34,152 bases of DNA from Nitrospirota bacterium (GTDB lineage Bacteria; Nitrospirota; UBA9217): contig JAOUEV010000038.1 in assembly GCA_029858565.1 (NCBI GenBank), positions 1 to 34,152 of the forward strand, read 5' to 3'. The first letter of the stretch is position 1, and every line of letters begins with the position of its first letter. The notes beneath the pieces are model-generated. The model was not told the origin of the DNA. It did not search any database and saw only the letters and a program-made list of their open reading frames with translations. This document shows, piece by piece, positions 1 through 32,709 of this stretch. The position numbers and the translations under genes are program-made.

Positions 1-618
1 TCGGATCACCTCGCTGATCGTGCCGTTGCCGATGCCGAGCACGATGATCGGAAGCAGCGCATATAACCATTTCTCGCCGCCTGTTGCGTAGCCGAATGCC
101 ATGGGAAAGAGACCGAGCTTGTGGGTAAAAAAATAGATGACAATATAGCCCAGCCAGAAGACCGGAAGAGCGGAAATGACATAGGAGAGGATGGTCAGAG
201 GCCAGGTGATCCGGCCCATGCCGTACATTGCCGATCGGATGGCGATCGGCGCCGCGATCAGGATCGTGATAAGGAGCGAGCCAACGGTCAGGAGCAGGGT
301 GTTCAGGCCCGTTCGGAGCACCTCACGAAGCACCGGCATGCCCGAGCGGATGGAGGTGCCGAAATCTCCCTTGAGCATGCCAAAGGTCCAGGAGAAATAC
401 CGGCCGTACCAGGTCTTCTGGACCCCCAGCGCCTCGCGCACACCGCTCCGCGCCTCTTCGGACATTGCCTGGCCTTCGAGCAATACGCTGAAAGGATCAC
501 CCGGTGAGAGGTAAAGGATGACGAAGACCACAAAGCTCACCCCAAGGAGCAGCAGACCGGTGATGACCAGCTCGCGCGAAAGGACCAGTGCTATGGGGCG
601 GAATGCTGAAAGTTTCAT
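1..618 (-). CDS. ABC transporter permease, DppB/OppB-like (3'-truncated by window edge)
   Basis: Not in the ORF track. Manual translation from ATG at 618 gives MKLSAFRPIALVLSRELVITGLLLLGVSFVVFVILYLSPGDP...GDFGTSIRSGMPV...SALPVFWLG. PGDP, GDFGxS and PxFWLG are OppB/DppB motifs. It starts 9 nt after the SBP stop. Confidence 0.9.
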   Translation of the reverse strand, partial: MKLSAFRPIALVLSRELVITGLLLLGVSFVVFVILYLSPGDPFSVLLEGQAMSEEARSGVREALGVQKTWYGRYFSWTFGMLKGDFGTSIRSGMPVLREVLRTGLNTLLLTVGSLLITILIAAPIAIRSAMYGMGRITWPLTILSYVISALPVFWLGYIVIYFFTHKLGLFPMAFGYATGGEKWLYALLPIIVLGIGNGTISEVIR

Positions 619-627
619 TGAATCGTC

Positions 628-2223
628 TTACTTCCCTTCCATGAACCACTCATCGGCAAAAGAGAAGAACTTGTACGGATGGATCGCTACGCGCCTGACC
701 TTGTCGCGGTAGGCCGCGAAGTTCGTGAGTGTCCAGAGGTAGGTGTAGGGATTCTCCTCGGCAAGGATCGCATGGAGCTTGCGGTTGATGGTACGCTTCT
801 TCTCGTGGTCCAGCGTGAGCTTGCTCTCGTTGATCAGGCCGTCAACTTCGGGGTTCGAGTAGCCGATGAAGTTGTTCTTCCAGGCCCCGATCTCGCCGGT
901 GTGGAAGAGCGACGAGATGTCAGCTGAATCGTCAAAGACCCAGGACGCGAACACGATATCGAAATCATGCTCCAGGAACACATCCTCTTTCCAGGCCTGC
1001 CACTCCTTGAACTCCACCTTGATGTCAGCACCCACGTTCTTGAGATAGTTCTTGAACGCCAGCACCACGCGCTTCACCGCCTCGCTCTCCTTCTCGATCG
1101 GCACTTTCAGCGAGAACGCGAGCCGCTTGCCGTCCTTCTGCAGGAACCCGTCGCCGGCTTTGGTGTATCCCGCTTCCTGGAGCAGGGCTGCAGCCTTCTG
1201 CGGATCGAATGCCAGCGGCTGCACATCCAGATTATAGGCCCAGCTGCCCGGAGCAAAAGGACCGGATATGATCGTTCCCCTGCCGTTGAAGAAAGAGTCG
1301 AGCATTTCCTGACGGTTCACCGCGTGCGTAAAGGCCTTGCGCACGTTCTTGTCCGCCAGGAGCGGATTGCGCATATTGTAGCCGAAGAAGGAGTAGGACA
1401 GGGCATTGTACGACTTGAGCACGAACCGCTTGTCGCCCTCGATCTCGGGGATGTCCCGCGGGTTCACGAGCACGATCATGTCGATTGCATTGAACATGAG
1501 CGCCTGGGTCATGATATTCTGGTCCGCGAAGGGTTTGGCCGAGAACTGGTTGATGTGCGCCCGTCCCTTGAAGTAGCTCTCGTTCGCCGCGAGCACGATC
1601 TCCCGCTCCGAGGTCACGTTCTTGAGCATATAAGGGCCCGTGCCGATGGGGTGCTGCACAAAAGGATCGTCGCGGGTCAGATAGTCCTTGTTCGCCGGCC
1701 CGTGCTTCGGGATGACCTTGAAGCTGAATTTCGCCAGGGCGTTCAGGATGGGCCGCTTGAGGCTGAAGCGCACCGCAGAGTCGTCAACCTTCTCCACGGA
1801 GGAGATGAACTCGTAGCGCACCTTGAGCGGCGTGATGGTCTTGGGATGCATCATGATATTGTAGGTGAAGACCACGTCGTCGGCGGTGAACGGCTTGGGC
1901 TGTTCCCCTTCCTTGGCGTGCCAGGTCACGTTCTTGCGCAGGTAGAAGGTGTAGGTCCGGCCGTCCTTCGATATCTCCCAGCGCTCGGCCAGTTCCGGGA
2001 CGATCTCCTGCTTCTCGTTGATGCCCACAAGGCCGTTGAAGATCAGCTCCGTGAGCCTGAGCGAGATCATCTCGTTGCTTGTGACCGGGTCGAGTGTGGC
2101 CGGTCTTCCGTACTCGCCGTAGCTCAGGCTGCCGCCGTCAGGCCGTCCGTCCTTCTTGGGCCCGGCATGGACCGCCGTCGCAATGACCAGGACCGCCAGC
2201 AACATCATCAGTATCCGTTTCAT
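628..2223 (-). CDS. ABC transporter substrate-binding protein, family 5 (peptide/nickel, AppA/DppA-like)
   Basis: Signal peptide ending AVHA. Motifs TLDPV, IFNGLV, PELAERWEIS.DG.TYTF.LR, FTADDVVFT, PIGTGPY and VRKAFTHAVNR. RBS GAGGAGG upstream. Confidence 0.95.
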   Translation of the reverse strand: MKRILMMLLAVLVIATAVHAGPKKDGRPDGGSLSYGEYGRPATLDPVTSNEMISLRLTELIFNGLVGINEKQEIVPELAERWEISKDGRTYTFYLRKNVTWHAKEGEQPKPFTADDVVFTYNIMMHPKTITPLKVRYEFISSVEKVDDSAVRFSLKRPILNALAKFSFKVIPKHGPANKDYLTRDDPFVQHPIGTGPYMLKNVTSEREIVLAANESYFKGRAHINQFSAKPFADQNIMTQALMFNAIDMIVLVNPRDIPEIEGDKRFVLKSYNALSYSFFGYNMRNPLLADKNVRKAFTHAVNRQEMLDSFFNGRGTIISGPFAPGSWAYNLDVQPLAFDPQKAAALLQEAGYTKAGDGFLQKDGKRLAFSLKVPIEKESEAVKRVVLAFKNYLKNVGADIKVEFKEWQAWKEDVFLEHDFDIVFASWVFDDSADISSLFHTGEIGAWKNNFIGYSNPEVDGLINESKLTLDHEKKRTINRKLHAILAEENPYTYLWTLTNFAAYRDKVRRVAIHPYKFFSFADEWFMEGK

Positions 2224-2240
2224 GGAAACCTCCTCAAGGA

Positions 2241-2318
2241 AGTGCGAAATGCGAAGTGCCGAGTGCGGAATAACATCGAAGAACGATTCAGGCTTTTCCG
2301 CACTTCGCGCTCCGCACT
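2241..2318. repeat. Intergenic inverted heptamer arrays (AGTGCGG/CCGCACT family), REP-like hairpin
   Basis: agtgcga-aatgcga-agtgccg-agtgcgg-aa (2241-2270) and tt-ccgcact-tcgcgct-ccgcact (2296-2318) are inverted copies of one 7-mer unit. Confidence 0.75.
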
Positions 2319-2322
2319 GCTG

Positions 2323-3846
2323 TTAGTTTATTTTTACGTCTCCCGCGCTCTTGTGCTCCATGGAGTAGATCCCCTGGAGCGCCTCCTGCAGCTGCCGCAC
2401 CTGGGGGAACTGCTTGCTCATCTCGAAATAGATCTCCAGCGCCTCGGAGTATTTCTTGGTCCGGTAATAGGCCTCCGCAAGGTCCACGAGCATCAGCGGA
2501 TCATTGAACTCGATCTTGTTCTTGTTTCCCTTGTCGCGTCCTGTCTCCAGATAGGTCAGGGCCCGGGCATAGTCTTTCCTGCCCACGTAGTATCTGCCGA
2601 GTCCGATGTTCGCCACGGCGAACCGCTTTCCCTCGCCCCGCTCCACGGCTGATGCAGCGGTCTGCGCCGGACGGGGGCACTCGATCGAGAGCCTGCCGCA
2701 GGCGAACAGCACGTCCGCCAGGAGCTCGGGGTCGTTCGGCTGGTTGCGCGTCAGCTCGTCCCAGAGGCCGATGGCGTCGGCCTTCTTGCCTTTCTGGTAC
2801 TGCACCAGGCCCTGGCGCACCATAGCCCGGTTCTTGTACTGCGGCGGGGCCTGGGGCGAAGCGAGGAACGCTGTTGCCGCCTTTGCCGCCTGGTCCGCGC
2901 TGCCTTCCAGAACAGAGGCTTCGCTCAGATAATAGTTCGCGATGCTCCTGAGCTGCGCATCCGCCGCGGCATGTTCGAGCGAGGCCGTTGCCGCCGCAAG
3001 ATAGAACTTCGCGAGGCTCGCCAGAAGCTGCACGTCGTAGAACGAGATCACCTTGCTCCTGCCGGCTGACTCGCGGTAGGCATGGGACTTGAGATCGCCG
3101 CGCTGGAGCAGGTCCATTCCTTTGTCCATCAGTCCGGCGGCCGCGTAGACCCCCAGGCAGTTCTTCACCGCAATGATCGACGGTGCGGCGCCGCTCTTCC
3201 TGCCCGCAGCCAGGACCTCATCGCACAGGGCCGGTGCGTTCTTGTCCGCCGCGACCGCCCGGCTCCAGGCAAAGGCAAGCTCGGTCTTCACGTCCTGGTC
3301 CGAGGACTGAACGGCATTCCAGGCGTCCTGCGCCTTTTGCTTGTTTCCGGCGTGATGCTCGACCATGCCGAGCCCGATCGCGGCAAATGCCTTGTGTTTT
3401 TTCTCAGCTGTTCCGGCAAGGAACTTTTCGAGCGGAGCTGCGGCGTTCTCGGGCTTGCCGCTCTCCAGCAACGTGAGGCCGAGATAGAGATCGCTGTATT
3501 TGCTCCTGCTCGACCCTCTTTCCCGGGCAAGCCGATTGAGATAATCGGCATTCACCACGACCGATGAGTGGAACAGTCCCTGGTGCAGCTCCGCGTTCTT
3601 AAGATAGAGCATTCCCAGGGCGAGCTGGGCCGCGGACTGCTTGTTCTGAGGCAGGGATGAAAGCGTCTGCCGCAAATCCCGGGCGCCTTCTTCATAACGG
3701 TGCTTCTCATAGGCCTTCATGGCCTTCTGCACCGCGTCATCGGCAGCGTGACCGCTGCCTGCGGCGCACAGCAAGAGCATTACGCACAAGAGGCCTGTTT
3801 TTGTTACCCGCAGCTTGTTCCGCACTCCGCACTCCGCACTCCGCAT
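2323..3846 (-). CDS. Exported tetratricopeptide-repeat (TPR) protein, ~507 aa
   Basis: Helical repeats such as AQLALGMLYLKNA, LYLGLTLLESGK, LGRYYVGRKDYARALTYLE and LAEAYYRTKKYSEALEIY. Start re-assigned to ATG 3846, 5 nt after the upstream stop and with GGAG/GAGG upstream. A signal peptide ending GHA-A follows. The ORF-track extension to 4068 overlaps the upstream gene. Confidence 0.85.
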   Translation of the reverse strand: MRSAECGVRNKLRVTKTGLLCVMLLLCAAGSGHAADDAVQKAMKAYEKHRYEEGARDLRQTLSSLPQNKQSAAQLALGMLYLKNAELHQGLFHSSVVVNADYLNRLARERGSSRSKYSDLYLGLTLLESGKPENAAAPLEKFLAGTAEKKHKAFAAIGLGMVEHHAGNKQKAQDAWNAVQSSDQDVKTELAFAWSRAVAADKNAPALCDEVLAAGRKSGAAPSIIAVKNCLGVYAAAGLMDKGMDLLQRGDLKSHAYRESAGRSKVISFYDVQLLASLAKFYLAAATASLEHAAADAQLRSIANYYLSEASVLEGSADQAAKAATAFLASPQAPPQYKNRAMVRQGLVQYQKGKKADAIGLWDELTRNQPNDPELLADVLFACGRLSIECPRPAQTAASAVERGEGKRFAVANIGLGRYYVGRKDYARALTYLETGRDKGNKNKIEFNDPLMLVDLAEAYYRTKKYSEALEIYFEMSKQFPQVRQLQEALQGIYSMEHKSAGDVKIN

Positions 3847-3847
3847 T
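3818..3847. repeat. Tandem heptamer (CCGCACT)x3 + CCGCATT inside the first codons of the TPR gene
   Basis: ttccgcactccgcactccgcactccgcatt uses the same unit as 2241-2318 and encodes MRSAECGVRN. Confidence 0.8.
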
Positions 3848-3851
3848 TCCC

Positions 3852-5042
3852 TCACTCCTTCATCTTCGCCACAAAGATCTGGTCCCACTGGTTCACCTGT
3901 GCCCGGAAAGCGATGCTCCCGTCGGGCCCGCAGGCGATATCGTGGTTCATCTTGGTCTCGGTGTGCAAGGGCCTGTCGCTCTTGTCCGCGAGGTTCACCA
4001 CGTGGATCGGATTGTATTCCAGCCGGTCGTTCTTCACGTACACGATGCGGCTGCTGTCGACCATCCACGCGGGCCCCCGCTCCACATCGGAGATCACGTC
4101 GAGCGCCGCTACCCGCTCAGCCAGCCCGTCGCCTTCCGCGGGATCGGTCCCGTCGGCATTCACCACCATGATGGACCAGATCCGGGGATCTCCCGCGGGA
4201 TTGTAGTTGCTGTAAAAGGCGATCTTCTTCCCGTCAGGCGACCAGACCGGCCGGATATCGTCATGAGACCAGGTCGTGATCGCCCTGCGGGACTCCGCGG
4301 GACGCGCCGGATCATCGATTACATAGATATTGTGGTCTTCGCTGCTCCCGGCCATGAACACGATGCGCTTCCCGTCAGGGGACCACTGGGGATAGAGAAA
4401 TTCTTTCCCTCCCTGGGTGAGCCTGGTCAGCACGCGGGTCGCGACATCGAGCAGATAGAGGTCGCCCTTTCCCGTGCGGCCCGAAACGAACACGATCCGG
4501 TCGCCCCTGGGCGACCAGTCCGCCTGGCCGTCCTTTTCCTTGTGCTGGGTCAGCCGATTGACCGCCTGGCCGCCCAGATCGCCAAGGTAGAGATCATAAT
4601 TTCCCGCGCCGCCGTTGCTCATAAAGGCGAAGCGGTACTCGTCCGGGGACCAGGTGATCCCCGTGTTGAAACTGATGTCCTCCACCACGCCGGGGAAGAA
4701 GAACTTCATCTCCCCGCCGCCGGAGGACGGAAGATAGTAGACCGTCTGGACCGGCGAAAGATCGTTGAGCAGGACGCGTATTTCCCGCTTGTCGCCGATG
4801 TTCCGCTCGAAGGTGAACAGGAAGCCGGAGCGGGACCAGGAAGGATTGCCGTCGTTCCTCCCGGTCTCGATCTCCGCGATGTTCTTTACAAAGAGCGGCA
4901 GCAGGGGCTCCGGCTTCTTCACGTCCTCGACCGCAGGGACGGACGGCGTGGGCGCGGTGACCGTCTCCTCTGCATTCAGAAGAGAGGCGCTCCCGGCAGC
5001 CAGCCCCAGCGTCATTACCATCAGAACGGTCGCTCTCAGCAC
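3852..5042 (-). CDS. Exported TolB-like beta-propeller protein (PD40 repeats)
   Basis: Signal peptide plus repeated blades PSWSRSG, WSPDEYRFAF, WSPRGDRIVF, PQWSPDGKRIVF and PVWSPDGKKIAF. No TolB N-terminal domain is evident. Confidence 0.9.
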   Translation of the reverse strand: MLRATVLMVMTLGLAAGSASLLNAEETVTAPTPSVPAVEDVKKPEPLLPLFVKNIAEIETGRNDGNPSWSRSGFLFTFERNIGDKREIRVLLNDLSPVQTVYYLPSSGGGEMKFFFPGVVEDISFNTGITWSPDEYRFAFMSNGGAGNYDLYLGDLGGQAVNRLTQHKEKDGQADWSPRGDRIVFVSGRTGKGDLYLLDVATRVLTRLTQGGKEFLYPQWSPDGKRIVFMAGSSEDHNIYVIDDPARPAESRRAITTWSHDDIRPVWSPDGKKIAFYSNYNPAGDPRIWSIMVVNADGTDPAEGDGLAERVAALDVISDVERGPAWMVDSSRIVYVKNDRLEYNPIHVVNLADKSDRPLHTETKMNHDIACGPDGSIAFRAQVNQWDQIFVAKMKE

Positions 5043-5061
5043 GTCAGGCCCTCGTCACAAC

Positions 5062-7632
5062 CTACATCTGCTTTTTGATCTGGTCCCAGTATTTCTGTCC
5101 TGCTTCCCTGCTCTGCTTGAAGCTGCCGTCGTTCTCCAGGGCCGCGGGAAAGAAATCGAAATACTCCTGCCAGGCCTGGTTCGCGTTGTTCAGGAGCAAT
5201 GACTTCTTCGTCAGGAGATAGAGCTTGTGATACGACAACGCCGTGTAGTAATAGGTGTCGTGGACCGCTTCGTCATAGCGCTCGGTCGGGAAGAAACGCG
5301 TGTTCTCCTTTGCCTTCTGGAGCGTCTGGATAGCCTTGGCAAAGCTCTGGGCGGAGCCGTCCCGGTCGCGCTGGACCAGCGCGTTGCCCCGCTCGTAGTA
5401 CGCATGTCCCAGGTTGGTGAAGGCCACGGAGTACTGCTTGAATATGAGCTGCTGGTTCTCGGGAAGCGAGAGCACCTTCTCGAACTCCCGGATCGCGGCG
5501 TCGTAGTCGTTCTTTTCGTCCAGGTACAGCTGCGCCAGCCGGTGGTGGGCATCGGAATAGTCCGGATGGTCCTTCTGCGTGGCCGCATAGGCCGCGATGG
5601 CGCCGTCCACGTCGTTGTTCTTCTCCGCCCGCTCGCCGATCTTGAGAAAATCCTTGTACAGGACGATCGCGCGGCCGGCGGTCCGGTCCTCGGTCTTGGT
5701 CGCGAACTCCACGACCTCCTCCCAGTCACGATAGTCGCCGCCCACGGTCAGGCGCACGGTATGGAACCCGAGCGTCACCGGCTTCCCCTCGGTCATGGGC
5801 GTTCTGCCGAGCTTCTCGCCGTCCACGAACACCTCCGCGCCCTGAGGACTGGAATCCGCCTTGAAGACCGCATTGTTCACCGTCAGGGAGTATTCCTTCA
5901 CATCGCGGCTCTTCTCGACGCGGAGCTTGTCGGATACCTGCTGGTAGCCGTGCCGATAGAGCACGAGGTCGTATTTCTTTCCGAGCCGGACCGGGACCTC
6001 GGCCTTGCCGTCGGCGTTCGTGGTGCTCACCCACTCCTCGTTCAGGTAGATGTTCACCCCTGCGAGCGGGCTCACATCAGGAGGCAGGCCGCCCTTGGTC
6101 GACAGGATGGCCACGTCCTTCCCGTCGTCATCCTCCCGCGCCGCGAGCCGGACGACCCGGTCTCCCACCGACACCTTCTCGCCTTTTTTCAGGTCATCGG
6201 CCTCGGCAAAGGAATGTGCGTCGTCGACCTTCTTGATCCTGAGCCTTCCTGCGTCGCGGTACCCCGTGACTTTGCCGGTCCCGTCGGTCTTGGGCGCCAG
6301 GAGGTTGAACTCCATGTTCTTGGCGATCTTGTAGCCGGACTTGCCCAGGTTGATGCGGTAGCGGTCGCCGTCAATGCCGACCACCGTCCCCTCGAAGGGG
6401 AACTTGGCAATGACCGCGTTTGCGATATCCTTTGCCGCTCCCGCTATATCCTTCTCACGTTTTGCACGCGCGAGCTGGCTGTGCACGATCTTGCCGCCGG
6501 AAGTGATGAACTTGACCTCGACCAGGAACCCCTGGTCGTCCTTGGCAACGCTCCCCATCACGATCATGTCCACTTTCTTCTTGAGCGGCGTTTCGCGCCA
6601 CCCCTTGGCAGTGATCTTGTCGATCTTCACCCGGGCCGCTTTCACTTCGGCATGGAGCGTTTTGGAAGGGACTTCCCTGAAGCAGGAATACTTGAACAAC
6701 TGAGCGGTCAGGGCATCCTCGGTCTGGGCCACGACCTCCTTCAGGTCCACGTTCGGCGTATTGCCGGTGACCCGATAGATGCCCGTCCGGATAGGCCGCG
6801 CCGTTGTGGGGGTGAAATACCGCTGAATGTCGATCTCCCCATCCAGGGATATCTTTGTTTTCCACGATTCAGGGATATACCCCGGCGCGCTGATCGCGAG
6901 CTGGACCTTTTTGCCCGGTTCGCCGTCGTAGGAATAGGTCACGGAACCCTTGGCGTCGGTCTTCCCTATCACGCGCTTGTCGATCGACACGGACAGGCCC
7001 GCGAGCCCGCCTGCCTGGCCGTACTCCTCCATGAGCGCGGTCACGGTCACGCGGGCGCGCTTGGACAGGATAGCCTCGATGTGTTCGCCCGGAACAAGCT
7101 CTCCGGTCTTTTTCCAGGAGCCATACCCCGGCTTCTTTACCGCAAGATCCGCGCCGCCCTTGGGCAAGGTCTGATAGGAGTACTGGAACTCGCCTTTTGC
7201 ATCGGTTTTCCCGATCTCCTTGCCCTCCGCCAGGACCGCCGCGTCCGCCACCGGCGCGCCCTTTTCCAGTGCGACAATGGTGACGAACCGCTCGGCCACG
7301 AGGTCGGCGTCAAGGACGTACTTCTCCACGATGCCTTTCTTCGGAAGTTTCATGAGAACGCTGGTCTTCCAGGGCTTGATCCGGTACCCCGGCTGCTCCT
7401 TGGTGACCGCGATCTCGACCTCCGCTCCCGGTTTCTTGGTAAGGATCTTGCCGAACATGCCGTCCTCGCCGGTCATGCCTTCCTGTACGCCATCGACGGT
7501 GACCGCGGCTTTCGCCACGGGCTGGCCATCCATCTTTGCCTTGACCTCAAGTGCCATCTTCTCGCCGCCGCAGGCAAACAGCAGGAGCGACGCCGAACCG
7601 GCAAGCACGAATGAGAGTAAACGCTTGAACAT
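5062..7632 (-). CDS. Large lipoprotein with carboxypeptidase-regulatory-like repeats, CsgG/FlgT-like central region, PEGA domain and C-terminal TPRs (~856 aa)
   Basis: Lipobox LFAC; ATG 7632 with RBS GAGGAGG. Repeated V.VDG...G.TD..G modules. The central ...IVMGSV...EVKFI...KFPFEGTVVGIDGDRYRINLG...GRLRIKKV...VGDRV resembles CsgG/TolB_N plus FlgT_C. PEGA-like SSPQGAEVFVDGEKLGRTP. TPRs AHHRLAQLY and AFTNLGHAYY. Confidence 0.85.
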   Translation of the reverse strand: MFKRLLSFVLAGSASLLLFACGGEKMALEVKAKMDGQPVAKAAVTVDGVQEGMTGEDGMFGKILTKKPGAEVEIAVTKEQPGYRIKPWKTSVLMKLPKKGIVEKYVLDADLVAERFVTIVALEKGAPVADAAVLAEGKEIGKTDAKGEFQYSYQTLPKGGADLAVKKPGYGSWKKTGELVPGEHIEAILSKRARVTVTALMEEYGQAGGLAGLSVSIDKRVIGKTDAKGSVTYSYDGEPGKKVQLAISAPGYIPESWKTKISLDGEIDIQRYFTPTTARPIRTGIYRVTGNTPNVDLKEVVAQTEDALTAQLFKYSCFREVPSKTLHAEVKAARVKIDKITAKGWRETPLKKKVDMIVMGSVAKDDQGFLVEVKFITSGGKIVHSQLARAKREKDIAGAAKDIANAVIAKFPFEGTVVGIDGDRYRINLGKSGYKIAKNMEFNLLAPKTDGTGKVTGYRDAGRLRIKKVDDAHSFAEADDLKKGEKVSVGDRVVRLAAREDDDGKDVAILSTKGGLPPDVSPLAGVNIYLNEEWVSTTNADGKAEVPVRLGKKYDLVLYRHGYQQVSDKLRVEKSRDVKEYSLTVNNAVFKADSSPQGAEVFVDGEKLGRTPMTEGKPVTLGFHTVRLTVGGDYRDWEEVVEFATKTEDRTAGRAIVLYKDFLKIGERAEKNNDVDGAIAAYAATQKDHPDYSDAHHRLAQLYLDEKNDYDAAIREFEKVLSLPENQQLIFKQYSVAFTNLGHAYYERGNALVQRDRDGSAQSFAKAIQTLQKAKENTRFFPTERYDEAVHDTYYYTALSYHKLYLLTKKSLLLNNANQAWQEYFDFFPAALENDGSFKQSREAGQKYWDQIKKQM

Positions 7633-7680
7633 ACCATTCCTCCTCAAAATTGACAGGTCCCGCGGATCAGGTGTGCCGTC

Positions 7681-8133
7681 CTACATGGTCGGCGGCTGGA
7701 TGTTCACCTCGCCGGGATTCACGATCTTGTCCTCGTCGGACCTGGATGCCTCGGTGGACTTGCGTCTGCCCTCGGAGATCTTCTTGAGCTTCAGGTCGAC
7801 CTTGGCGCCGCTGAACTTGCCGACCTCCACGGTCTGGGTCTCTGTCTGGTAGCCGATCCTGCTCGCTTCCACCTTGTAAACGCCGGCGGCGATCTTCCCT
7901 TTTTCCGACTCGAACTTGCCCTCGACATTCGCCGTCACTGCATGGGATGCCTCTTCGAGTGTCGAGGTGGTATTGATCATGTTTACCACCGTACCTTCGG
8001 GACTCTCCTTTGCCGGGGGGACCGGCTGCAGGTTGGCATCCACCAGCTGAAGCGTTCCATAGATCTTCGGCGAGCATGCGGCTAGGGAGAACAGCACTAC
8101 CAACAGTATGATGGTTCTGGACTGGAGCATCAT
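7681..8133 (-). CDS. Lipoprotein with carboxypeptidase regulatory-like (transthyretin-fold) domain
   Basis: Lipobox LAAC; G..V.M...ANVEGKF....IAAGVYKVEASRIGY pattern; RBS GGAGGG. First gene after the riboswitch. Confidence 0.8.
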   Translation of the reverse strand: MMLQSRTIILLVVLFSLAACSPKIYGTLQLVDANLQPVPPAKESPEGTVVNMINTTSTLEEASHAVTANVEGKFESEKGKIAAGVYKVEASRIGYQTETQTVEVGKFSGAKVDLKLKKISEGRRKSTEASRSDEDKIVNPGEVNIQPPTM

Positions 8134-8176
8134 GGGATCCCTCCTGAAACAGGCGTTAGTGGCATAGGTTATTCAG

Positions 8177-8236
8177 AAAACAGAAAACCGCCAAAGCTGA
8201 TATCCTACTGTGAAGTAAAGAGGTCGCTTTGGCGGC
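8177..8236 (-). terminator. Riboswitch expression platform: intrinsic terminator overlapping aptamer P1
   Basis: CCGCCAAAGC (8235-8226) pairs perfectly with GCUUUGGCGG (8197-8188), followed by UUUUCUGUUUU. The 5' arm includes the P1 3' strand CAAAG. Confidence 0.8.
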
Positions 8237-8329
8237 TCGACTGGCATGTAAGGCCTGCCTAGATCGGCAGGTTTACGTAGCCTCGTGGCTCTGCGTCCCC
8301 GGGTTTCCCCAGGTTTGCTCTGAGCAAAG
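8227..8329 (-). ncRNA. GEMM-I (c-di-GMP-I family) riboswitch aptamer, A20 variant predicted to bind 3',3'-c-AMP-GMP
   Basis: Minus strand: CUUUG-CUCAGA-GCAAACCUGGG-GAAA-CCCGGGGACGC-AGA-GCCACGAGGCUACGUAAA...AUGCCAGUCGAGCCGC-CAAAG. It has P1 CUUUG/CAAAG, a P2 with GNRA loop, and the GCAAACC and GACGCA conserved blocks as in Vc2. The base equivalent to Vc2 G20 (8319) is A. Confidence 0.9.
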
Positions 8330-8368
8330 TACGTATGTTCCCGGACGTTGTGTCCGAAAGTGGAATAT

Positions 8369-8397
8369 ACTGTAGCATTGGCAGACCTGATTGTCAA
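8369..8397 (-). promoter_or_regulatory. Sigma70-type promoter of the riboswitch-led operon
   Basis: TTGACA (8397-8392), 17 nt spacer, TACAGT (8374-8369) with extended TGn; 40 nt upstream of the aptamer. Confidence 0.7.
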
Positions 8398-8413
8398 GAT
8401 GTGACATGGGCAG

Positions 8414-9799
8414 TGTCAAGCCAAAGCAGAAATGTCCTATTCTAAAGGAACAGTTGACACTGCTGGTTTTTGTCTTAAGTCAGGGTTGAAGCTTTCTCTC
8501 CAGGGGTGTATGCGACCCGGTTTCCCCCGATCCCACGTCTTGTACAGCTTGGGCGATTGTTTATGTTCTTTCTGTGGGCGAACACTGATCTTCTGGCACC
8601 TCAAACGCTGGCCGTTATGCAGAATCCTCATTGAGCCGTCTGTCCGTTCTTCCACGGTTACCTTCTTGGCCCGGAGATTGTCTTTGATCTGATAAAGTTA
8701 TTTGTCGTGCGCTATGGTAAAGTCGTTCCGCAACGCCCTTGAGCTACGAATTGACAGGATTCGATCCTGCTCCCGATAGTCTTTGAACCGACGGTGCATA
8801 TCCGTGTTCTTGGCCGGAGACACCCGATACCGCCGGTTATAATCCGGCAAGTACGTTTGCAGAAAGACATTTTCCTCGTCTTTACTCCTGACACCTGCCA
8901 GCCGCATTTCTTTTATCACCCGGTCCTGAAACGTCCCGAACAGCCGCTCCACCCGCCCTTTGGCCTGGGGGGGAATATGCATGGATCACGGTCATGCCGA
9001 GCTCCTGAAGGCTCCTTTTGAACTGGCTCATCAACTGCCGGTCTTCAAGCTGCTCCTCGATCGCCTGGTGCTGAACAGTCGATTTATAGGTCGAATGACG
9101 GTCTAAATACACGCTCCGAGGAATGCCGTACTGCTTGATATATCCTTTGAAACAGTCCATGGCCGGAAGCGTTCCCTCATAATCATAGAACCAGGCGCAC
9201 ACCTCTCCCGTAGCATCGTCCACAAATGCCATCAGTGCACACTTTGGTCCCCGGCCCTCGAACCAGTCGTGATGAGAACCGTCCAACTGGACCATGGCAC
9301 CGCGGCATGCTTTCCGTTCCCGCCACTGCCTGTAGGGCCGTTTCTTGCGCTTCCGGTACGGCAACCCTGCCTCGAGAAACCAGGTCCGCAGCGTTTCGAC
9401 GCTTACCTTGATACGATTCTTTTCAAGAAGCTTTTCACTGGCAAGGGTAGGGCCGAACTCTTGATAGCGTTCGCGGCAAACTCGATTGTCTTGAGTTTTA
9501 CTGCCTCCGGGATCTGGTTGTCGGTTTCCTGCCGCGTGCGTAGTGGCAAACTCCCGCATCCCCCTCTGTCCTGACCTGCCGAATAATCCGTTGCAGCTGC
9601 CGCAGGCATAAACCTGCCATCTGTGCGGCTTCTGCCTGCGTAATTCTCTTCTCTATCGCCTTCCGTCACAAGATGCAGCAGCTTTGCTTCCTTCATGCTC
9701 ATCGTGATAACACCTCTCCCCATCGCGCCCTCCCTTAACAGGAGGACAATACGACATTTCTGCTTGGGGAAATGCGACATTATCACTTTGGGAAAAACA
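8414..9799 (-). mobile_element. Degenerate insertion sequence, IS1202 (ex-ISNCY)/IS481-like
   Basis: Ends TGTCAAGCCAAAGCAGAAATGTC (from 8414) and, read inward from 9799, TGTTTTTCCCAAAGTGATAATGTCG followed by a second CCAAGCAGAAATGTCG repeat. These are TGT...ACA termini with internal AATGTC repeats. No target duplication found. Confidence 0.8.
8437..9723 (-). pseudogene. DDE transposase pseudogene (several frameshifts and one in-frame stop)
   Basis: Fragments MGRGVITMSMKEAKLLH, FGPTLASEKL, VQLDGSHHDWFEGR, AFVDDATG, YLDRHSTY, PQAKGRVERLFGTFQDR and VEERTDGSMRI are spread over different frames. There is a frameshift at the G-run near 8970 and an in-frame TAA at 8698-8700. Confidence 0.88.
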
Positions 9800-9856
9800 G
9801 GAACTTGGCCGGAAAACCGTCAAGGTGATCAGCAGGCACGATCCGCGGCATTCTCC

Positions 9857-15112: not shown

Positions 15113-18100
15113 CTATTCGCTCAATTCAAACCATTTCCGTCCCCAGACTTTAAGAAGTTCATCGAGCTGAAGCCGGATCCGCCATTTAGCCGGTGTTGAT
15201 TTTTTCACCTCATCGATAGCGTTGAGGATCGCGATGATGTTCTGTTCCGCTGTCTTGCGGTCACCGGCTGATTCATTCACCGAGCGGAGATCATCCAAGG
15301 CTTTGAAAATCGCCAGGGCATCTTCCTTGCCTGCTGCTGTCGTCGTGTTCAGATCGTATAGAACGTCGCGCAGCAGCGTTCCGGAGCTCTTCTCTACCTT
15401 GACCATAAGATCGAGCCGATCGTAGAAGCGATACTCGCCTCCGTTCCGGTACCATGCCTCCGTCCGCGTGAGATAATCGGCCGCTCTGTCGTCTACCCTG
15501 AGGGAATAGCGGAAGGTCCCTGTTTCCGACGCCTGGAGGGACTTCTCCCATGTCAGGATGTCATCGATCAGCGGCGTGGCCGGCCGGATCGCGTCAACGG
15601 AAACGCCCATGGGCAGAAATTCGCGTATCTGTATATCCACAGGCTCCGTTGAATTGTTCACGCTGATCCTGATCGGCACGATCCCCAACGGCCGCGGATA
15701 GAATTCAGCAGGACGCACATAATTGATGCTGTTGATCAGGAGCGCCGCTGCCTTTGCCTGGTCCGGGGATTCCGGCAGATTGAACGTATAGAGAAGCACC
15801 TTTCCGCGGCCGTACTCCCGTGCCACAATCGAAGGATATGCCGTCTGTTTGTCCAGGACCGTGGCGAAGACCGTTGCATTCGGGTCAATAACCTCAGCGA
15901 CAACATGCTTGCCGCTGCTTTCGAGGGCCGATTCGGTGCTGAGGGGACTGTCGAGCAGGGAAACGGTCAGATTCTCGGCAGTCGTCCTTCCCGTGAATTT
16001 GACGCCGTACAATTCATCAAGCACCGGGTCCACCTCATGACGCGCCTTGATGAAGATCAGCCCGTCGCCGTAATGCACCGCATCCCTGATTTCCCGGCCG
16101 ACGAACGGTTCCTTCACGTCGACGAGCATGTAGGTGTTGTAGCGGCCTGAGCGATATTTCATCGCAAAATCGTCTTCGTCCTTTGCGATGCTGTAATTGA
16201 TGCCTGCTGATGACAAAAGATTGCTAAGGACATCCAGGGAAGAGAGCTCTCTCCTATCCCGACCTTCGTCATCACGATTATCTTCTCGTTTACATGCTGC
16301 ATCCTTCTTAATATCGGCACACCCTTTATTTTCCCTGTCATCATCGTCATGGCCGCCACGCTCATCTTCGCAGTCCGAATCATCCCCTTTTTCCCGCCCG
16401 TCAAACCAAACAAGAACAACGGGATCGGCCGCGATCTTTTTCGAAATTGTCATGGTGACCAAGTTAACAGTAATTGCCTGTTCAGTTTCTTCGTTCTGGA
16501 CATTATCGACGGATTTGAACAACACTGTATGCACACCCGACAGGCCATCCTTCAGGCTGAAGCTGCCGGTGTACGTCTGCCACGCGCCGTCATCAATGCG
16601 ATAGCTTGTCACACGAAGGCCGGACAGGTTGTCAGCGGCTGACAGGGTAAAGAATATCGACGGCGAAACCGCGTTCACCTGGCCTTCCAGCAGCGGCTCG
16701 GTCGCGGAAATGGTGGTAACCGGCGGCGTTGCGTCGACGGTAAGGACAAAAGACCCGTCCTTTTCGGTGTTTTCGACATTGTCAATGCTCCGATAACCGA
16801 TCGAGTGGGTCCCCTCCGTGGCAAGAAGGACTGGTCCTGCATAGCGCTCCCAGGACTTTTCATCGATTCGATATTCACTCCGGGCCACGCCGGAGGATGC
16901 ATCCGTGGCCTCAAAGATGATCTCGCTTCCGCCGGCAACGAACAGCTTTCCGTCAGCGGCACTGTACTCCGAACCGCTCACTGCCGCGGTCGTCTTCGGC
17001 GCGGTGTTATCGATGATCAAGGCAAGAGACTTGTCCGCCTCCAGGTTTGTTACCTGGTCCCGGCTCCGGTAGCTGATGGTATGAGTGCCTTCCGTGCTAA
17101 CCGTGAAGGCGGAATAGCGCGACCAGGCGCCGTTGTCGATGCGGTATTCCGTCAGCGCAACGCCGGACAGGTCGTCGGTTGCCGATACCGTGACCACGCT
17201 GGAACTCGATCCGTACAGGCTTCCGTCGCCTGCGGTATATTTCGGCGTACCAACGGAAAGCTCTGAGAGCGGAGGCATGTTGTCGATAATTACCGCTTCC
17301 GGTCCGATGGTTGCCCCATTGCCGAGACGATCCGATGCCTGCGCAACAATCCTGTGGCTCCCCGGCTCGCTGATCTTGAACGCACCGGCATACTCCTGCC
17401 ACGCGCCATCGTCGATGCGATAGCTAACCGCTGCGACACCGCTTCCTGCATCGGTCGCCGTGATGGTAACCGGCGAGGAGTTCTTCGCGTAGCGTGTCCC
17501 GTCCGCGGCAATAAAGACGGGCTCACCGACAACCAACTGAATCGCCGGTGCGGCAGCATCGACAACGAGACTAAGCACTCGCTCCTGCTCCAGGTTGCCG
17601 ATATTGTCCCTGCTCCGGTAACCAAGGGTGTGGGTGCCTTCGGACGATAGCGTAAATGGTGATGTGTAGGCAACATACTGGCCGCTGTCGAGCCGGTATT
17701 CCGTTCCAGCGACCCCGGAAATATCGTCGATAGCGCTTAGCGTAATTGCCGTGCTCGGCGCGAGGAACACGCTGCCGCCGGCCTCATGCTTCGGCGTGCC
17801 GATGATCGCCGTTGTTACCGGCGGCGTGGAATCCATCTGGACTTCAAAAGCCACGAGCGGCGTTGTTGCGGAATTGCCTGCCTTGTCAAATGCGCGGAAC
17901 GCAATCGCATGGGCGCCGTTGTCCGTTATTCCCGGCTCCCAGGTCGCAGCAAATTTCCCCCGGATCGGATCAGCCGGCGGGAGAAGTCTCCAGACGCCGC
18001 TGTCGATCCGGTACTCGACCCGGTCGATTCCCGTCCCGCTGTCGGATGCAGCGGCCTCGATTGCCACGGTCCCGCGATAGGAGCCGTTCGCAGCAGGCAA

Positions 18101-21100
18101 GACCGCGGTGACAACAGGCGCGATCATGTCCTTGACTGCAAAAGACGCGCTCGCCAGAGTTCCGTTCCCCTCTGGCCCGGTTCTCTGCAAAAGAACGGTG
18201 TAGGACTTGAAATCCAGGCCAGCCGTGGAAACGATCCATGTCCCGCTCCGCTCGGCCGATCTCGGAAGGTCTGCGGTTTGTTCGTGCGTGCGCAGGACCG
18301 CATTCGTCTCCGGATCCACCAAGACAAGCCTCGCGGCCACACCCGACGCATCCGCATTGCCGCTGTTCAAAAGGCTGTAGGTTATCGTTGCGTCGCTGCC
18401 AAAGGCCGTGACCGGCTGGGCTGTTTTGATCGATCCCGTGATCACCGGCACCGGCCGGATGCCGAAAGATGCGGATGCCGCGGCTTCCGGCTGGCCGTCC
18501 TGAAACACCTGCACCGAGACCGAATAGGTTCCCGCAGGGAAGGTTGACGTGTTCCAGGCAGCGCTGAAGGAGACAGCGGTCCCGGGAAGTATATTTGATG
18601 CATTATGTTCCGTCGTGGACAGCGCCGTGCCGTGAGCATCAAGGTAGTTCACCACGGCCCGGATCGCGGAAATAATGAAGTTCTTGCCGCTGTTCCTGAT
18701 GGTCACCGCCCCGGTCACGGCTTCCGCCGGGCCATACTCTGCCTTGTTCGTAGTGACCGAAGCCTGAATGTTCACATCCGGCAGGATGGTGAAATCAGCT
18801 GAGCTGCTCGCCAGGACAACGGTACCTTCCTTCAGCTCCGCCTTCACCCGATACCGGCCTGCAAGCGTTGTGCCGGTATTCCAGGCATACCCTCGCCTGA
18901 GCGGTTCGGCATATCCGACGGAGACGCTTTCCGCGGTGAACAGGACCACCGGGTACCCGTCGGCGTCCTCGATCCGCGTCTCGAGCGCGGCGGTCGTCGG
19001 ACGGCCGCTGTTCCAAAGCGATGCGTTGATCGCTACCGGCGAATCGCTCGCATAACGCAACGAATCCGCGCCCACTTCCAGTGCCACTCCCTCGCGATCT
19101 GTCACGGTGAAATCATGGATTGCCACATTGTTTGACTCGTCGCGTTCAGCGATCAGATCGTCAGCGTCCACGACGACGACAAGTCTGTTCTGTCCTGCTT
19201 TGCCGGAACTGTCCCACGGAACGTTCACCCACTCTTCCGAACCCGGCGCTATTTCGGGGATGAGCATCGAGAGCAGATGTTCAAGATTTCCGGCTCCATT
19301 CCACAGATACAAATCAACACTCACATCCTCTATCGGCGAACCGGACGGATTGCGGACAGGGACGGAGACCGCGACCTGCTCGCCCGCGATCGAGGCCGCC
19401 GGAAGAAGGAGAATGTCTTCGTCGACGACAGCGGCGTCGGGCGTCAAGGCGGCATCAAAGTTTATCGCGACGGAGGCGGATCGGTCGCTTTCATTCCCTG
19501 CTTTATCGGCGCAGGCGGCGTTGAACTCGTTCGATCCGTCGAGAAGAGCAACGCTTGCGAATTCGAACGACCCCGCGAGATCGACCAGTTTCACCGTCCT
19601 GGAAATCACCGCCAGGATCGTGCCATTCGCGGACGTCTCGATCTTCCCGATCGAAGACAGCGGCCCGAGCAGATCGCGGGCCGTTCTCGAAGCCGCCAGG
19701 CCTGCAATCCTGAGGAAATAGCCGCCCTTGGCAGAGTTATAGACCATATACAGAAGTTCATCGCCCGACGCGGACCATGAGGGCCGAAACGCGTTGTCGG
19801 CAATGCCTGCCGAGGCGGAGGCGCCGGTCGACAGATCGTAGATCATCACTTCGCTCGAGCCGCTGGCATATGACGTATACGTGAGCCGCTTGCCGTCGGG
19901 CGACCAGGTGAAAGAATCCCATCCGCCGTCGGGATCAATCGACTTCGATTGCATGGTCTCGACGTTCAGCAGCTGCAGTCCAGCCCACCGGACATAGGCC
20001 AGATATTTCCCGTCCGGTGAAATCCGATCGTCGTAAAGATCGGAAGCGGAGAGCAGGGATTTCAAACTTCCCGTTGTCAGGTCCTTCAGCATGACCGACA
20101 TGGTGTTCCCCGCAACGCTCAGCACGCAGACTTTCGCACCGTCCGCTGTCCACTGCGCGCCATATTCCTGCCTCGACGCGCCGGTGTTGACCGGCGCCGC
20201 GTCGCGACTATCCAGAGGCATGATCGCGATCCGTTCGTTTCCTGAATAACCCTCGTAGAACGAGTAGGCAATCTGCGTTCCATCGGGCGACCAGACGGGA
20301 TGGAACGCCCCTTCAATCGCCCGTTCTTCCGCTCCCGTCGCCAGCGTCTTGAACCAGAGAGCGCCGTCTTTTGCGTAGGCGAGGATCGCTCCGTCCGGAG
20401 AGAGCGCGGGAGACTCATCGATCCCCTCCAGCGCATAGGAGGTAACCTCGTCGCTGGGAAGCGCCGGGGTTTCGCCCGCCGGGCTCCCGTTCCGGTAGAG
20501 ATGCACGGTCGTACCGGGCTCTCCGATCCCGGTGATCGCGATCCTGGCGCGCGATGCCTGCGCCGGCGCGCCGGGCCGTGCCGGGAAAAAGATCCCGGGG
20601 GTGGACGGAGCTATCGTATCGACGACAACAGCGGAAGCTTCGTCCGAATAGGGGCTTTCATTGCCGACCCCGTCAACCGACGTGACAACGTAGAAATATT
20701 CCACGCCGTTCGTCAGACCGGAGTCCTCGTAGAGGGTGCTCGTCAGCTCCGCCCTATTCACCCGCTCGTAGGGGCCGCCTGTCTGCAAACCACGATAGAG
20801 CGCGTATTTCGCCTGCGGTGTAGGATTCCACTCGATCCTGAGGCTCCCCCCCTCGGGGAGCGACTGAATATGGAGACCCGCGGGCGCGTCAGGCAGCGGA
20901 ACAGCAACGGTGGCCGTCGCCTCTTCGGACGGCGCGCTTTCGTTGTTCTTCGCGTCAACCGCGGTTATCCGGTACCGATAGTTTCCGTTGGCAAGATCGG
21001 TGTCCCTATAGGTCCGGTCGGTTGCAGGCGTCGCACCTAGCAGGATCCATCCCGACGGGCCGCTCCTGAACACGCGGTACGTCGCGACGTCGGGCTCCGT

Positions 21101-32602: not shown

Positions 32603-32709
32603 TTGAGCCTCCGGAGATTGCTGCAATCCTTGATTTAGGGTGTTCATCCAAGAAGAACGGCCAGGATCTGCCTTATCGCCTAACTTTCGAGAGCAATGCC
32701 TGTTCATTT

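Follow-up and report, generated by a model that had tools for sequence, protein, structure and literature searches.

The window analysed here, a 34,152-nt stretch that is the whole of contig JAOUEV010000038.1 in a 3.9-Mb, 144-contig genome of a Nitrospirota bacterium (GCA_029858565.1), carries an operon in which a known riboswitch class and an Opp-type ATP-binding cassette (ABC) importer are combined with a conserved four-protein envelope module that matches no named system. The genes are designated A to I, with A-D encoding the envelope proteins and E-I the importer. The genes very probably form one operon gated by a cyclic dinucleotide, and A-D and E-I are likely, from comparison of related loci, to be one functional system. 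The fuller reading, a nine-gene system made from a single riboswitch-gated promoter with A-D as a scaffold feeding the importer, is somewhat favoured here. A sequence-only reading of the same DNA had predicted a cyclic GMP-AMP (cGAMP)-activated operon coupling an envelope complex to a peptide-type ABC transporter; its observation is confirmed and its interpretation partly supported. It had recognised no named system with this gene set, and none was matched in Pfam, NCBIfam, the solved structures or the papers of the literature searched, the riboswitch-gene list of PMC6456294 lying outside that coverage.

Organization of the Operon

All features of the operon are on the minus strand, and the operon reads from about position 8400 down to position 1. 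A putative promoter, a GEMM-I aptamer and a terminator are followed by six co-oriented genes: A (7681-8133, 150 aa), B (5062-7632, 856 aa), C (3852-5042, 396 aa), D (2323-3846, 507 aa), E (628-2223, 531 aa) and F (1-618), the first permease, present with the N-terminal 206 of its 319 aa. The intergenic spacings A-B, B-C, C-D, D-E and E-F are 48, 19, 5, 99 and 9 nt. The promoter, riboswitch and six tightly spaced, co-oriented genes that had been described are all there, though on the minus strand. The start codon of D is uncertain, since the first codons of the 507-aa reading overlap a repeat resembling repetitive extragenic palindromic (REP) elements (about 3800-3850, read by eye from the translation); the true start may be further in.

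The contig break (L009 12055; window 1-128) interrupts the gene of the first permease. Contig C29 ends in a stretch that matches window positions 1-128 with one mismatch, and F continues in frame on C29 to its total of 319 aa. A stop arises from this single mismatch, but only in the final bases of C29, and is most likely an artefact of the assembly end. Beyond F, C29 encodes a second permease and two ATPases with oligo_HPY tails (G-I), the very components for which an inspection of the sequence left of the window had been proposed. With them, the ABC importer is complete and the unit comprises nine genes. After the ATPases come two open reading frames (ORFs; 239 and 238 aa), without a family match and without a counterpart in the other loci, which were not counted in the unit, and then ffh, rimM and trmD.

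Conservation of the Nine-Gene Unit

With B as the query, 66 loci were fetched from species-representative genomes, all of them metagenome-assembled genomes (MAGs). They are labelled Nitrospirota, Thermodesulfobacteriota/delta, Rokubacteria, Gallionellaceae/Nitrosomonadales, Geobacteraceae, Desulfuromonadales and others, and the nearest are labelled Nitrospirota; the host itself lies outside Geobacter. Their gene content was established by tblastn with all nine proteins. In 37 of the 66 loci, all nine genes are found on one strand and in the window's order; L075 is a 38th full locus if a 36% match to D is accepted. Contig ends cut 25 loci, which hold every gene that fits. Three depart from this order: in L012 and L061, the 4.7 kb and 1.35 kb that follow F gave no match to genes G-I, and L070 has B only, 30% identical, with none of the other genes. 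The matches in L038, L039, L069, L071 and L074 are broken or piecewise. When all flanking ORFs were clustered, no further flanking gene was common to more than 12 loci, and the unit is therefore taken to be these nine genes. The synteny of the scaffold genes with the binding protein and permease, on which the sequence-only reading depended, is thus conserved, with L012, L061 and L070 as the departures.

The search was extended to 301 genomes, sampled evenly from the window's phylum. B is present in 52 of them (45/63 in the family to which the window belongs, 5/6 and 1/5 in two others, none in the rest). A binding protein of the E type, all matches being at least 72% identical, is present in 50, every one of which also carries B, and no E-type protein without B was found among the 301. 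The remaining two B-carrying genomes, without an E-type match, have completeness values of 88% and 70%.

Binding proteins usually evolve faster than the ATPases of their transporters. The median identities to the window proteins are 65% for A, 62% for B, 61% for C, 48% for D and 81% for E, followed by 71% for F, 83% for G, 72% for H and 76% for I. Protein E is the most conserved extracytoplasmic member, with a mean column identity of 85% and 62% of its columns at least 90% conserved; its mean pairwise distance is the lowest of the nine, 0.19 against 0.24-0.35 for the permeases and ATPases. Distances were compared in the window and the 28 complete loci (of the 37) that passed a stricter filter. 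There, the pairwise distances of E correlate more strongly with those of A-D (0.87-0.90) than with those of F-I (0.65-0.81). Once the trend of the G, H and I mean is regressed out, residual correlations are 0.72 for E-B, 0.71 for E-C, 0.66 for E-A and 0.62 for E-D, compared with 0.28 for E-F. This correlated divergence fits a binding protein that would be constrained by contacts with the envelope proteins.

The Leader: Putative Promoter, Aptamer and Terminator

The sigma-70-like promoter (8369-8397, minus strand) consists of TTGACA at 8397 and TACAGT, which ends at 8369, separated by 17 nt, with TG before the -10 element and 10 of 12 consensus matches. It is the better of two, a second promoter-like site overlapping it at 8419-8390. 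Such sites number four in 9 kb, only about twice the 2.2 +/- 1.4 of shuffles, so the promoter call is weak, a consensus match only.

The GEMM-I (c-di-GMP-I) aptamer at 8228-8329 (minus strand), 94 nt upstream of gene A, matches the full RF01051 model (1-87) with 54.8 bits, against a gathering score of 35, and an E-value of 3.1e-08. It is the sole Rfam match in the window and was recovered again by a whole-genome search. In the alignment to the Rfam model, position 11, equivalent to G20 of the Vc2 aptamer, is an A, unpaired and ahead of the first helix. The 28 aligned copies, from the window and 27 loci, all read CAGAGCAAA, and this A is invariant among them. The paired structure used for the covariation test came from that same 28-sequence alignment; in it, the paired share of cells is 97.1%, compared with 91.3% in shuffles and 26-37% with the partners slid, and five pairs are changed on both sides (compensatory change).

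An intrinsic terminator (8174-8238, minus strand) follows, whose 5' arm, GCCGCCAAAG, is the 3' strand of the aptamer and whose 3' arm is followed by UUUUCUGUUUU. The hairpin (8238-8188) has a predicted energy of -29.3 kcal/mol (z -4.4), equalled by none of 200 shuffles, and when the whole leader is folded without ligand, the terminator prevails. A hairpin and T-run follow the aptamer in all 29 copies. Since the aptamer and the terminator share a strand and the terminator wins without ligand, the ligand should prevent termination; from these predicted structures, conserved in 29 of 29 copies, we infer the logic of an ON switch.

A covariance model built from the 28 aptamer copies was run on the 66 loci, 57 of which are testable, with at least 350 nt upstream of gene A. 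Apart from the window, the riboswitch precedes the operon in 28 of the 66 loci, i.e., 28 of the 57 testable ones, mostly labelled Nitrospirota: 22 of 23 Nitrospirota, 1 of 2 Nitrospiria, 1 of 8 delta, 1 of 3 unlabelled (L050), and the single Geobacteraceae, Desulfuromonadales and Betaproteobacteria loci. Among the testable loci, it is found in none of 7 Rokubacteria, none of 7 Gallionellaceae/Gallionellales/Nitrosomonadales and none of 4 others, and an Rfam search of six riboswitch-negative loci gave no match. The expected conservation of an upstream GEMM-I element stands for 28 of the 57 testable loci and fails for 29. L050, an unlabelled MAG, carries a canonical G20 aptamer (L050:214-311, 53 bits) before the same operon, and the ligand specificity of the leader, as read from this base, seems to differ between lineages. 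In the delta-labelled loci without a riboswitch (L021, L023, L024, L025, L052 and L063), a conserved TGGCA-N7-TGCA element is found upstream of gene A; it resembles the -24/-12 consensus of sigma-54 promoters.

Ligand and Candidate Signal Source

An A at the G20 position is the signature of the cGAMP-type (GEMM-Ib) riboswitches (PMC6456294, PMC6140456), and the signal would accordingly be 3',3'-cGAMP, or cGAMP together with cyclic di-GMP (c-di-GMP). According to PMC6456294, the A20G change converts a cGAMP-selective Geobacter aptamer to a c-di-GMP one. According to PMC6140456, some natural A20 variants, e.g., one from Clostridium, bind both ligands, and the G20A mutant of Vc2 binds c-di-GMP at 53 nM and cGAMP at 120 nM. 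As A20 aptamers can bind both, cGAMP is given little better than an even chance of being the main ligand. Of the proposed cGAMP activation, activation is supported by the predicted ON logic of the terminator and the A at the G20 position agrees with cGAMP; the choice of cGAMP itself depends on that one nucleotide, in a position where A variants can be bispecific. No description of A20 riboswitches or Hypr enzymes in Nitrospirota was found in the literature searched, in which Gemmatimonadetes papers crowded the riboswitch results.

Three GEMM-I elements are present in the genome, the operon's own included. One on contig C135 (G000:C135:69608-69695, minus strand) has G20 and precedes a rhodanese-domain gene; the other (G000:C18:32674-32751, minus strand) is a weak match of 37 bits, possibly with A, before a CBS-domain gene.

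The genome also encodes 28 GGDEF domains, most with ordinary motifs; the base-selecting residue was assigned by alignment and checked against solved cyclases. A 543-aa PAS-PAS-GGDEF protein (G000:C14:137591-138064; L086:361-1989) has Thr at this position, canonically Asp or Glu, together with GGDEF, and a second domain with Thr is encoded on C103. The Hypr pattern is Ser or Thr at position 348 with GGDEF/Y, according to the eLife paper, and the PAS-PAS-GGDEF protein is a candidate hybrid (cGAMP-making) cyclase by this residue.

In the eight closest loci, a 300-aa Rec-GGDEF gene is found on the same strand directly upstream of the riboswitch (L010:2189-3088, with matching genes in L011, L012, L013, L014, L028, L041 and L061). 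Its domain layout is that of the Geobacter cGAMP synthase. Alignment to solved cyclases confirmed Gln as the selecting residue of seven of these proteins and Val as that of the L028 protein, with GGDEF. In the window, a transposase remnant (rve integrase core, in at least two frames; 8432-9800) lies immediately upstream of the promoter, in the place of the relatives' Rec-GGDEF gene; it is single-copy in the genome.

The Envelope Proteins

The export signals were read by eye from the translations. Lipoboxes are visible in A (LAAC) and B (LFAC), the Cys of the latter being kept in at least 90% of 53 homologues, and C, D and E have hydrophobic N-termini followed by Ala-X-Ala-like sites. On this reading by eye, the earlier statement that five of the proteins carry export signals is upheld. 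Protein A, with a homologue in 59 of the 66 loci, shows a CarboxypepD_reg-like beta-sandwich match (PF13620, 4.5e-06) below the Pfam cut-off.

In protein B, Pfam recognises PEGA, CarboxypepD_reg and TPR domains, and the architecture comprises three Ig-like domains, a FlgT-like module (about 278-498), an Ig-like domain, PEGA and TPR (656-856). The FlgT-like module combines a TolB-N/PelC/CsgG-like alpha/beta domain with a beta-barrel. A model built from 53 homologues has a predicted local distance difference test score (pLDDT) of 88.3. Among solved structures, Foldseek ranks FlgT (3w1e, E 1.4e-10) and the Vibrio LPHT ring (8z5n) first, ahead of pilin-like Ig domains and TolB. The C-terminal 200 residues form a TPR array (Z 16.8). 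Because matches to the TPR dominated the comparison of the whole structure, residues 276-505 were folded separately (pLDDT 91.7; predicted template modelling score, pTM, 0.82) and compared with 48,161 chains. The first sub-domain (about 278-412) matches the TolB N-domain (Z 11.5, 115 residues aligned), CsgG (6lqh, Z 10.6, 119 aligned), PelC (5t0z, Z 10.5, 111 aligned; further matches at 10.1 and 9.6) and LpoB (Z 8.8), with LptE and TraT likewise matched; the PelC/CsgG matches are tied with TolB and LpoB-like folds. The second sub-domain resembles the N-terminal barrel of the F1/V1/FliI ATPases and MreC (Z 8-9, MreC 8.6). FlgT alone covers both sub-domains (8z5n_5, Z 10.9, 198 residues over model positions 2-222), and the high root-mean-square deviation of this match (8.1) implies that the sub-domains are set at a different angle in B.

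No FlgT family match was obtained for B in Pfam or NCBIfam, nor a CsgG match in Pfam. Searches of structure atlases returned generic PEGA/TPR names and weak CsgG leads for B, and generic TPR names for D. The label "CsgG/FlgT-like" that had been given to B is upheld by the fold searches. The most conserved part is the PEGA and TPR region, with conservation of at least 90% in 41-43% of columns, compared with 14-23% in the rest of the protein. Public names of B relatives are "PEGA domain-containing protein", "TPR repeat protein" and "hypothetical".

Protein C is an exported beta-propeller of four PD40 repeats (2.5e-32), TolB-like without the TolB N-domain. It scores 122.5 bits against TolB TIGR02800, for which the cut-off is 343, over profile positions 237-399 only, i.e., the propeller. 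Protein D, the fastest-evolving member, is an exported all-TPR protein with a YbgF-like match (2e-09) below the cut-off and weak matches to LapB and BamD-like TPR proteins.

The Importer

The set is that of a complete Opp/Dpp-type importer: a family-5 binding protein, two BPD_transp_1 permeases (F in the window being the N-terminal part of one) and two oligo_HPY ATPases. E is a solute-binding protein of the peptide type (SBP_bac_5, 1.5e-84). Its closest solved relatives are AppA (1xoc, 1.7e-59), an unnamed family-5 protein and DppA (1.2e-47); the murein-peptide binding protein 3o9p (1.5e-26) is also among them. The invariant Asp431 of E aligns with Asp408 of DppA, and the position of DppA Arg355 is occupied by Val. 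In DppA, Asp408 presumably binds the amino end of the peptide and Arg355 the carboxyl end. The kept Asp and the Val suggest a peptide longer than a dipeptide and free at its N-terminus; even chances are given to a peptide with free N-terminus as the substrate.

In the first ATPase (L009:9599-10702, minus strand), the ABC_tran match extends over 191 residues, for a profile of 137 positions, and the NCBIfam matches fall in two stretches, which suggests an insertion of about 50 residues in the predicted nucleotide-binding domain.

Elsewhere in the window, a single open frame of 5864 aa (15113-32707, minus strand) contains many Ig-like domains along with CARDB, FlgD_ig, PD40, F5/8-type-C and prenyltransferase/TED-like domains. 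These domains suggest a giant protein of the cell surface or of adhesin-like type.

Proposed Mechanism and Alternative Explanations

In the mechanism proposed for the nine-gene system, the 3' strand of the aptamer would pair into the terminator when ligand is missing; bound ligand would hold this strand, and the polymerase would read through. The operon would then produce two outer-membrane lipoproteins (A and B), a periplasmic propeller (C), a TPR protein (D) and the Opp/Dpp-type importer E-I. Several fold relatives of B are lipoproteins that form rings at the outer membrane, hence the idea of a collar: B would hang from the outer membrane, probably as an oligomer, by analogy with FlgT, PelC and CsgG. 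Its PEGA and TPR end, with C and D, would hold or feed the dedicated binding protein E, and a peptide-like ligand captured under the outer membrane would be handed to the importer. Contact between an A-D machine and the ABC system is inferred from co-occurrence and correlated divergence, and direct docking of E on the scaffold is put forward tentatively, at less than even odds.

Several observations weigh against this proposal. No gene for an outer-membrane channel is present in the nine-gene unit. Protein E meets none of the NCBIfam equivalog cut-offs (OppA, DppA, NikA, SapA, GsiB, CntA), the best score being 202 bits for Opp4A against 650. A shared periplasmic compartment would give a similar E/A-D signal and may account for it, and the loci compared are kin, not independent. 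On the side of the signal, A20 by itself gives no selectivity, to judge from PMC6140456. The Rec-GGDEF protein adjoining the riboswitch has Gln instead of the Hypr Ser/Thr, and in the window's genome, its orthologue (G000:C46:26097-26960, minus strand, 72% identical), which is followed by a PD40 protein, is not adjacent to the operon. With a G20 aptamer in L050 and no aptamer in 29 of the 57 testable loci, the system evidently does not need an A20 signal. Finally, the putative co-transcription of both halves would have to cross the 99-nt D-E gap and its hairpin.

That hairpin, a REP-like repeat in the gap (2224-2322, minus strand), is real, with -44 kcal/mol and z -4.2; the sequence-only reading had pointed to it at 2241-2318 as a place where transcription might stop. 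If it ended or processed the transcript, the riboswitch would control A-D only and E-I would have their own start. The great stability of the hairpin and the length of the gap, the longest in the operon, speak for this, and it is nevertheless considered very unlikely. The hairpin is not followed by a U-run and is not listed in the terminator scan; the inverted repeat (2230-2310) is a genome-wide element with 15 further partial copies on other contigs; the promoter scan gave no promoter-like site in the gap; and the D-E gaps of related loci measure only tens of bases. A small second hairpin in the gap covers the Shine-Dalgarno sequence of E. The D-E hairpin may modulate the ratio of the two operon halves. 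The same 99-nt gap, with its strong hairpin exactly between the halves, would also suit two independent modules that merely share a transcript: an envelope structure A-D, for example a PelC/CsgG-like collar for a secreted polymer or a FlgT-like ring, and a nutritional peptide importer E-I. In its central fold, B resembles lipoproteins that form rings in secretion systems or flagella, and the ABC part looks like a standard Opp/Dpp set. This separation is nonetheless rather improbable, as the halves are never apart in the searched genomes (all 50 genomes with an E-type protein have B), the gene order is fixed across distant lineages, the unusually conserved E follows A-D in its divergence more than its own transporter, and the unit includes neither a polymer synthase or porin gene nor a flagellar one.

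The identity of the ligand is the point on which another account comes closest to being accepted. With a bispecific A20 aptamer, the ligand could be c-di-GMP, or both dinucleotides equally, and the operon could belong to an ordinary c-di-GMP envelope/biofilm regulon. The reported bispecificity of natural A20 variants and the affinities of Vc2 G20A cited above (53 nM c-di-GMP, 120 nM cGAMP; PMC6140456) allow this, as do the G20 aptamer of L050 before the same operon, the ordinary motifs of most of the 28 GGDEF domains and the lack of a Ser/Thr signature in the neighbouring Rec-GGDEF. On the other hand, the A is invariant in 28 of 28 copies while paired positions vary, which argues for selection on that base; the G20 aptamer kept on C135 in the same genome makes two specificities plausible; and an enzyme combining Thr with GGDEF is present. 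A signal of c-di-GMP, or of both dinucleotides equally, is regarded as a serious possibility that falls short of even odds. As for function, B, C and D could act on cell-wall synthesis or turnover as TolB-, CpoB/YbgF- and LpoB-like proteins during a lifestyle switch, with E-I re-importing the murein peptides set free, in the manner of MppA-Opp. The fold of B (TolB N-domain Z 11.5, LpoB 8.8, MreC 8.6), the weak YbgF match of D, the TolB match of C and the murein-peptide binding protein 3o9p (1.5e-26) among the relatives of E all point this way, and the Geobacter cGAMP regulon includes lipoprotein transpeptidases (PMC6456294). Still, the unit has no wall-active enzyme, the TolB, YbgF and LpoB matches are below family cut-offs or at fold level only, and E is nearer to AppA and DppA than to MppA; a peptidoglycan-linked system appears quite unlikely.

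The most far-reaching version of the nine-gene reading is a self-contained cassette. In it, the Gln-type Rec-GGDEF would make the cyclic dinucleotide (cGAMP or another mixed one), the A20 riboswitch just downstream of its gene would read it and switch on the operon, and the collar of B with A, C and D would dock the binding protein, extending the importer physically to the underside of the outer membrane. Gene transfer would have carried this envelope-spanning route for capturing a specific peptide between Nitrospirota, Rokubacteria, Gallionellaceae and Desulfuromonadales of the subsurface. Taken as a whole, this scenario is speculative and rather unlikely to be correct in full.

Comparison with Known Systems

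The leader is most like the Geobacter GEMM-Ib element of pgcA/Gs1761: the Rfam family, the A at the G20 position, the ON switch by way of a terminator and the exported or envelope targets are the same. Here, however, it is found mainly in Nitrospirota-labelled MAGs, with one Geobacteraceae and one Desulfuromonadales MAG, as a single aptamer rather than a tandem pair, and its ligand class is predicted from sequence. The gene set under its control is not named in the available part of PMC6456294.

Both sub-domains of the central module of B are covered by a single solved protein only, FlgT, a periplasmic ring component at the outer membrane (Vibrio H-ring, 3w1e; LPHT ring, 8z5n). In contrast to FlgT, B is a lipoprotein and has, in addition, five Ig-like domains and a TPR domain; it shows no family match at the sequence level and has no flagellar gene among the conserved neighbours of its operon. 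The alpha/beta fold at about 278-412 also resembles that of PelC and CsgG, lipoproteins which form rings of 9 to 12 subunits, and PelB adds TPR repeats, as B likewise does. Pel is under second-messenger control. Unlike PelC/PelB and CsgG, the unit lacks a porin or barrel and a polymer synthase, and the partner is an importer, not an exporter.

The Tol-Pal system offers a third resemblance, with the PD40 propeller of C, the TolB-N-like domain of B and the weak YbgF-like TPR match of D. All scores, however, fall well short of the equivalog cut-offs, the counterparts of the two TolB domains lie in separate proteins, B and C, and neither TolQRA nor Pal genes are present in the unit. The importer half has the gene composition of Opp/Dpp/App (PepT family) and keeps the Asp aligned with DppA Asp408. 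It differs from these transporters in its four accompanying envelope proteins, in a binding protein that is the most conserved member, in Val at the DppA Arg355 position and in meeting no named equivalog cut-off.

If the two halves work together, the operon would encode an ABC importer with an obligatory four-protein envelope scaffold. The operon is present in abundant, uncultured lineages of groundwater, soil and sediment. It also takes the A20 (cGAMP-type) GEMM-I class beyond the Geobacter setting in which it was characterised, and offers a clean, one-operon read-out for this class, to which eight loci add an adjoining candidate synthase. Together, the read-out and the adjoining candidate synthase would make cGAMP signalling in Nitrospirota directly testable.

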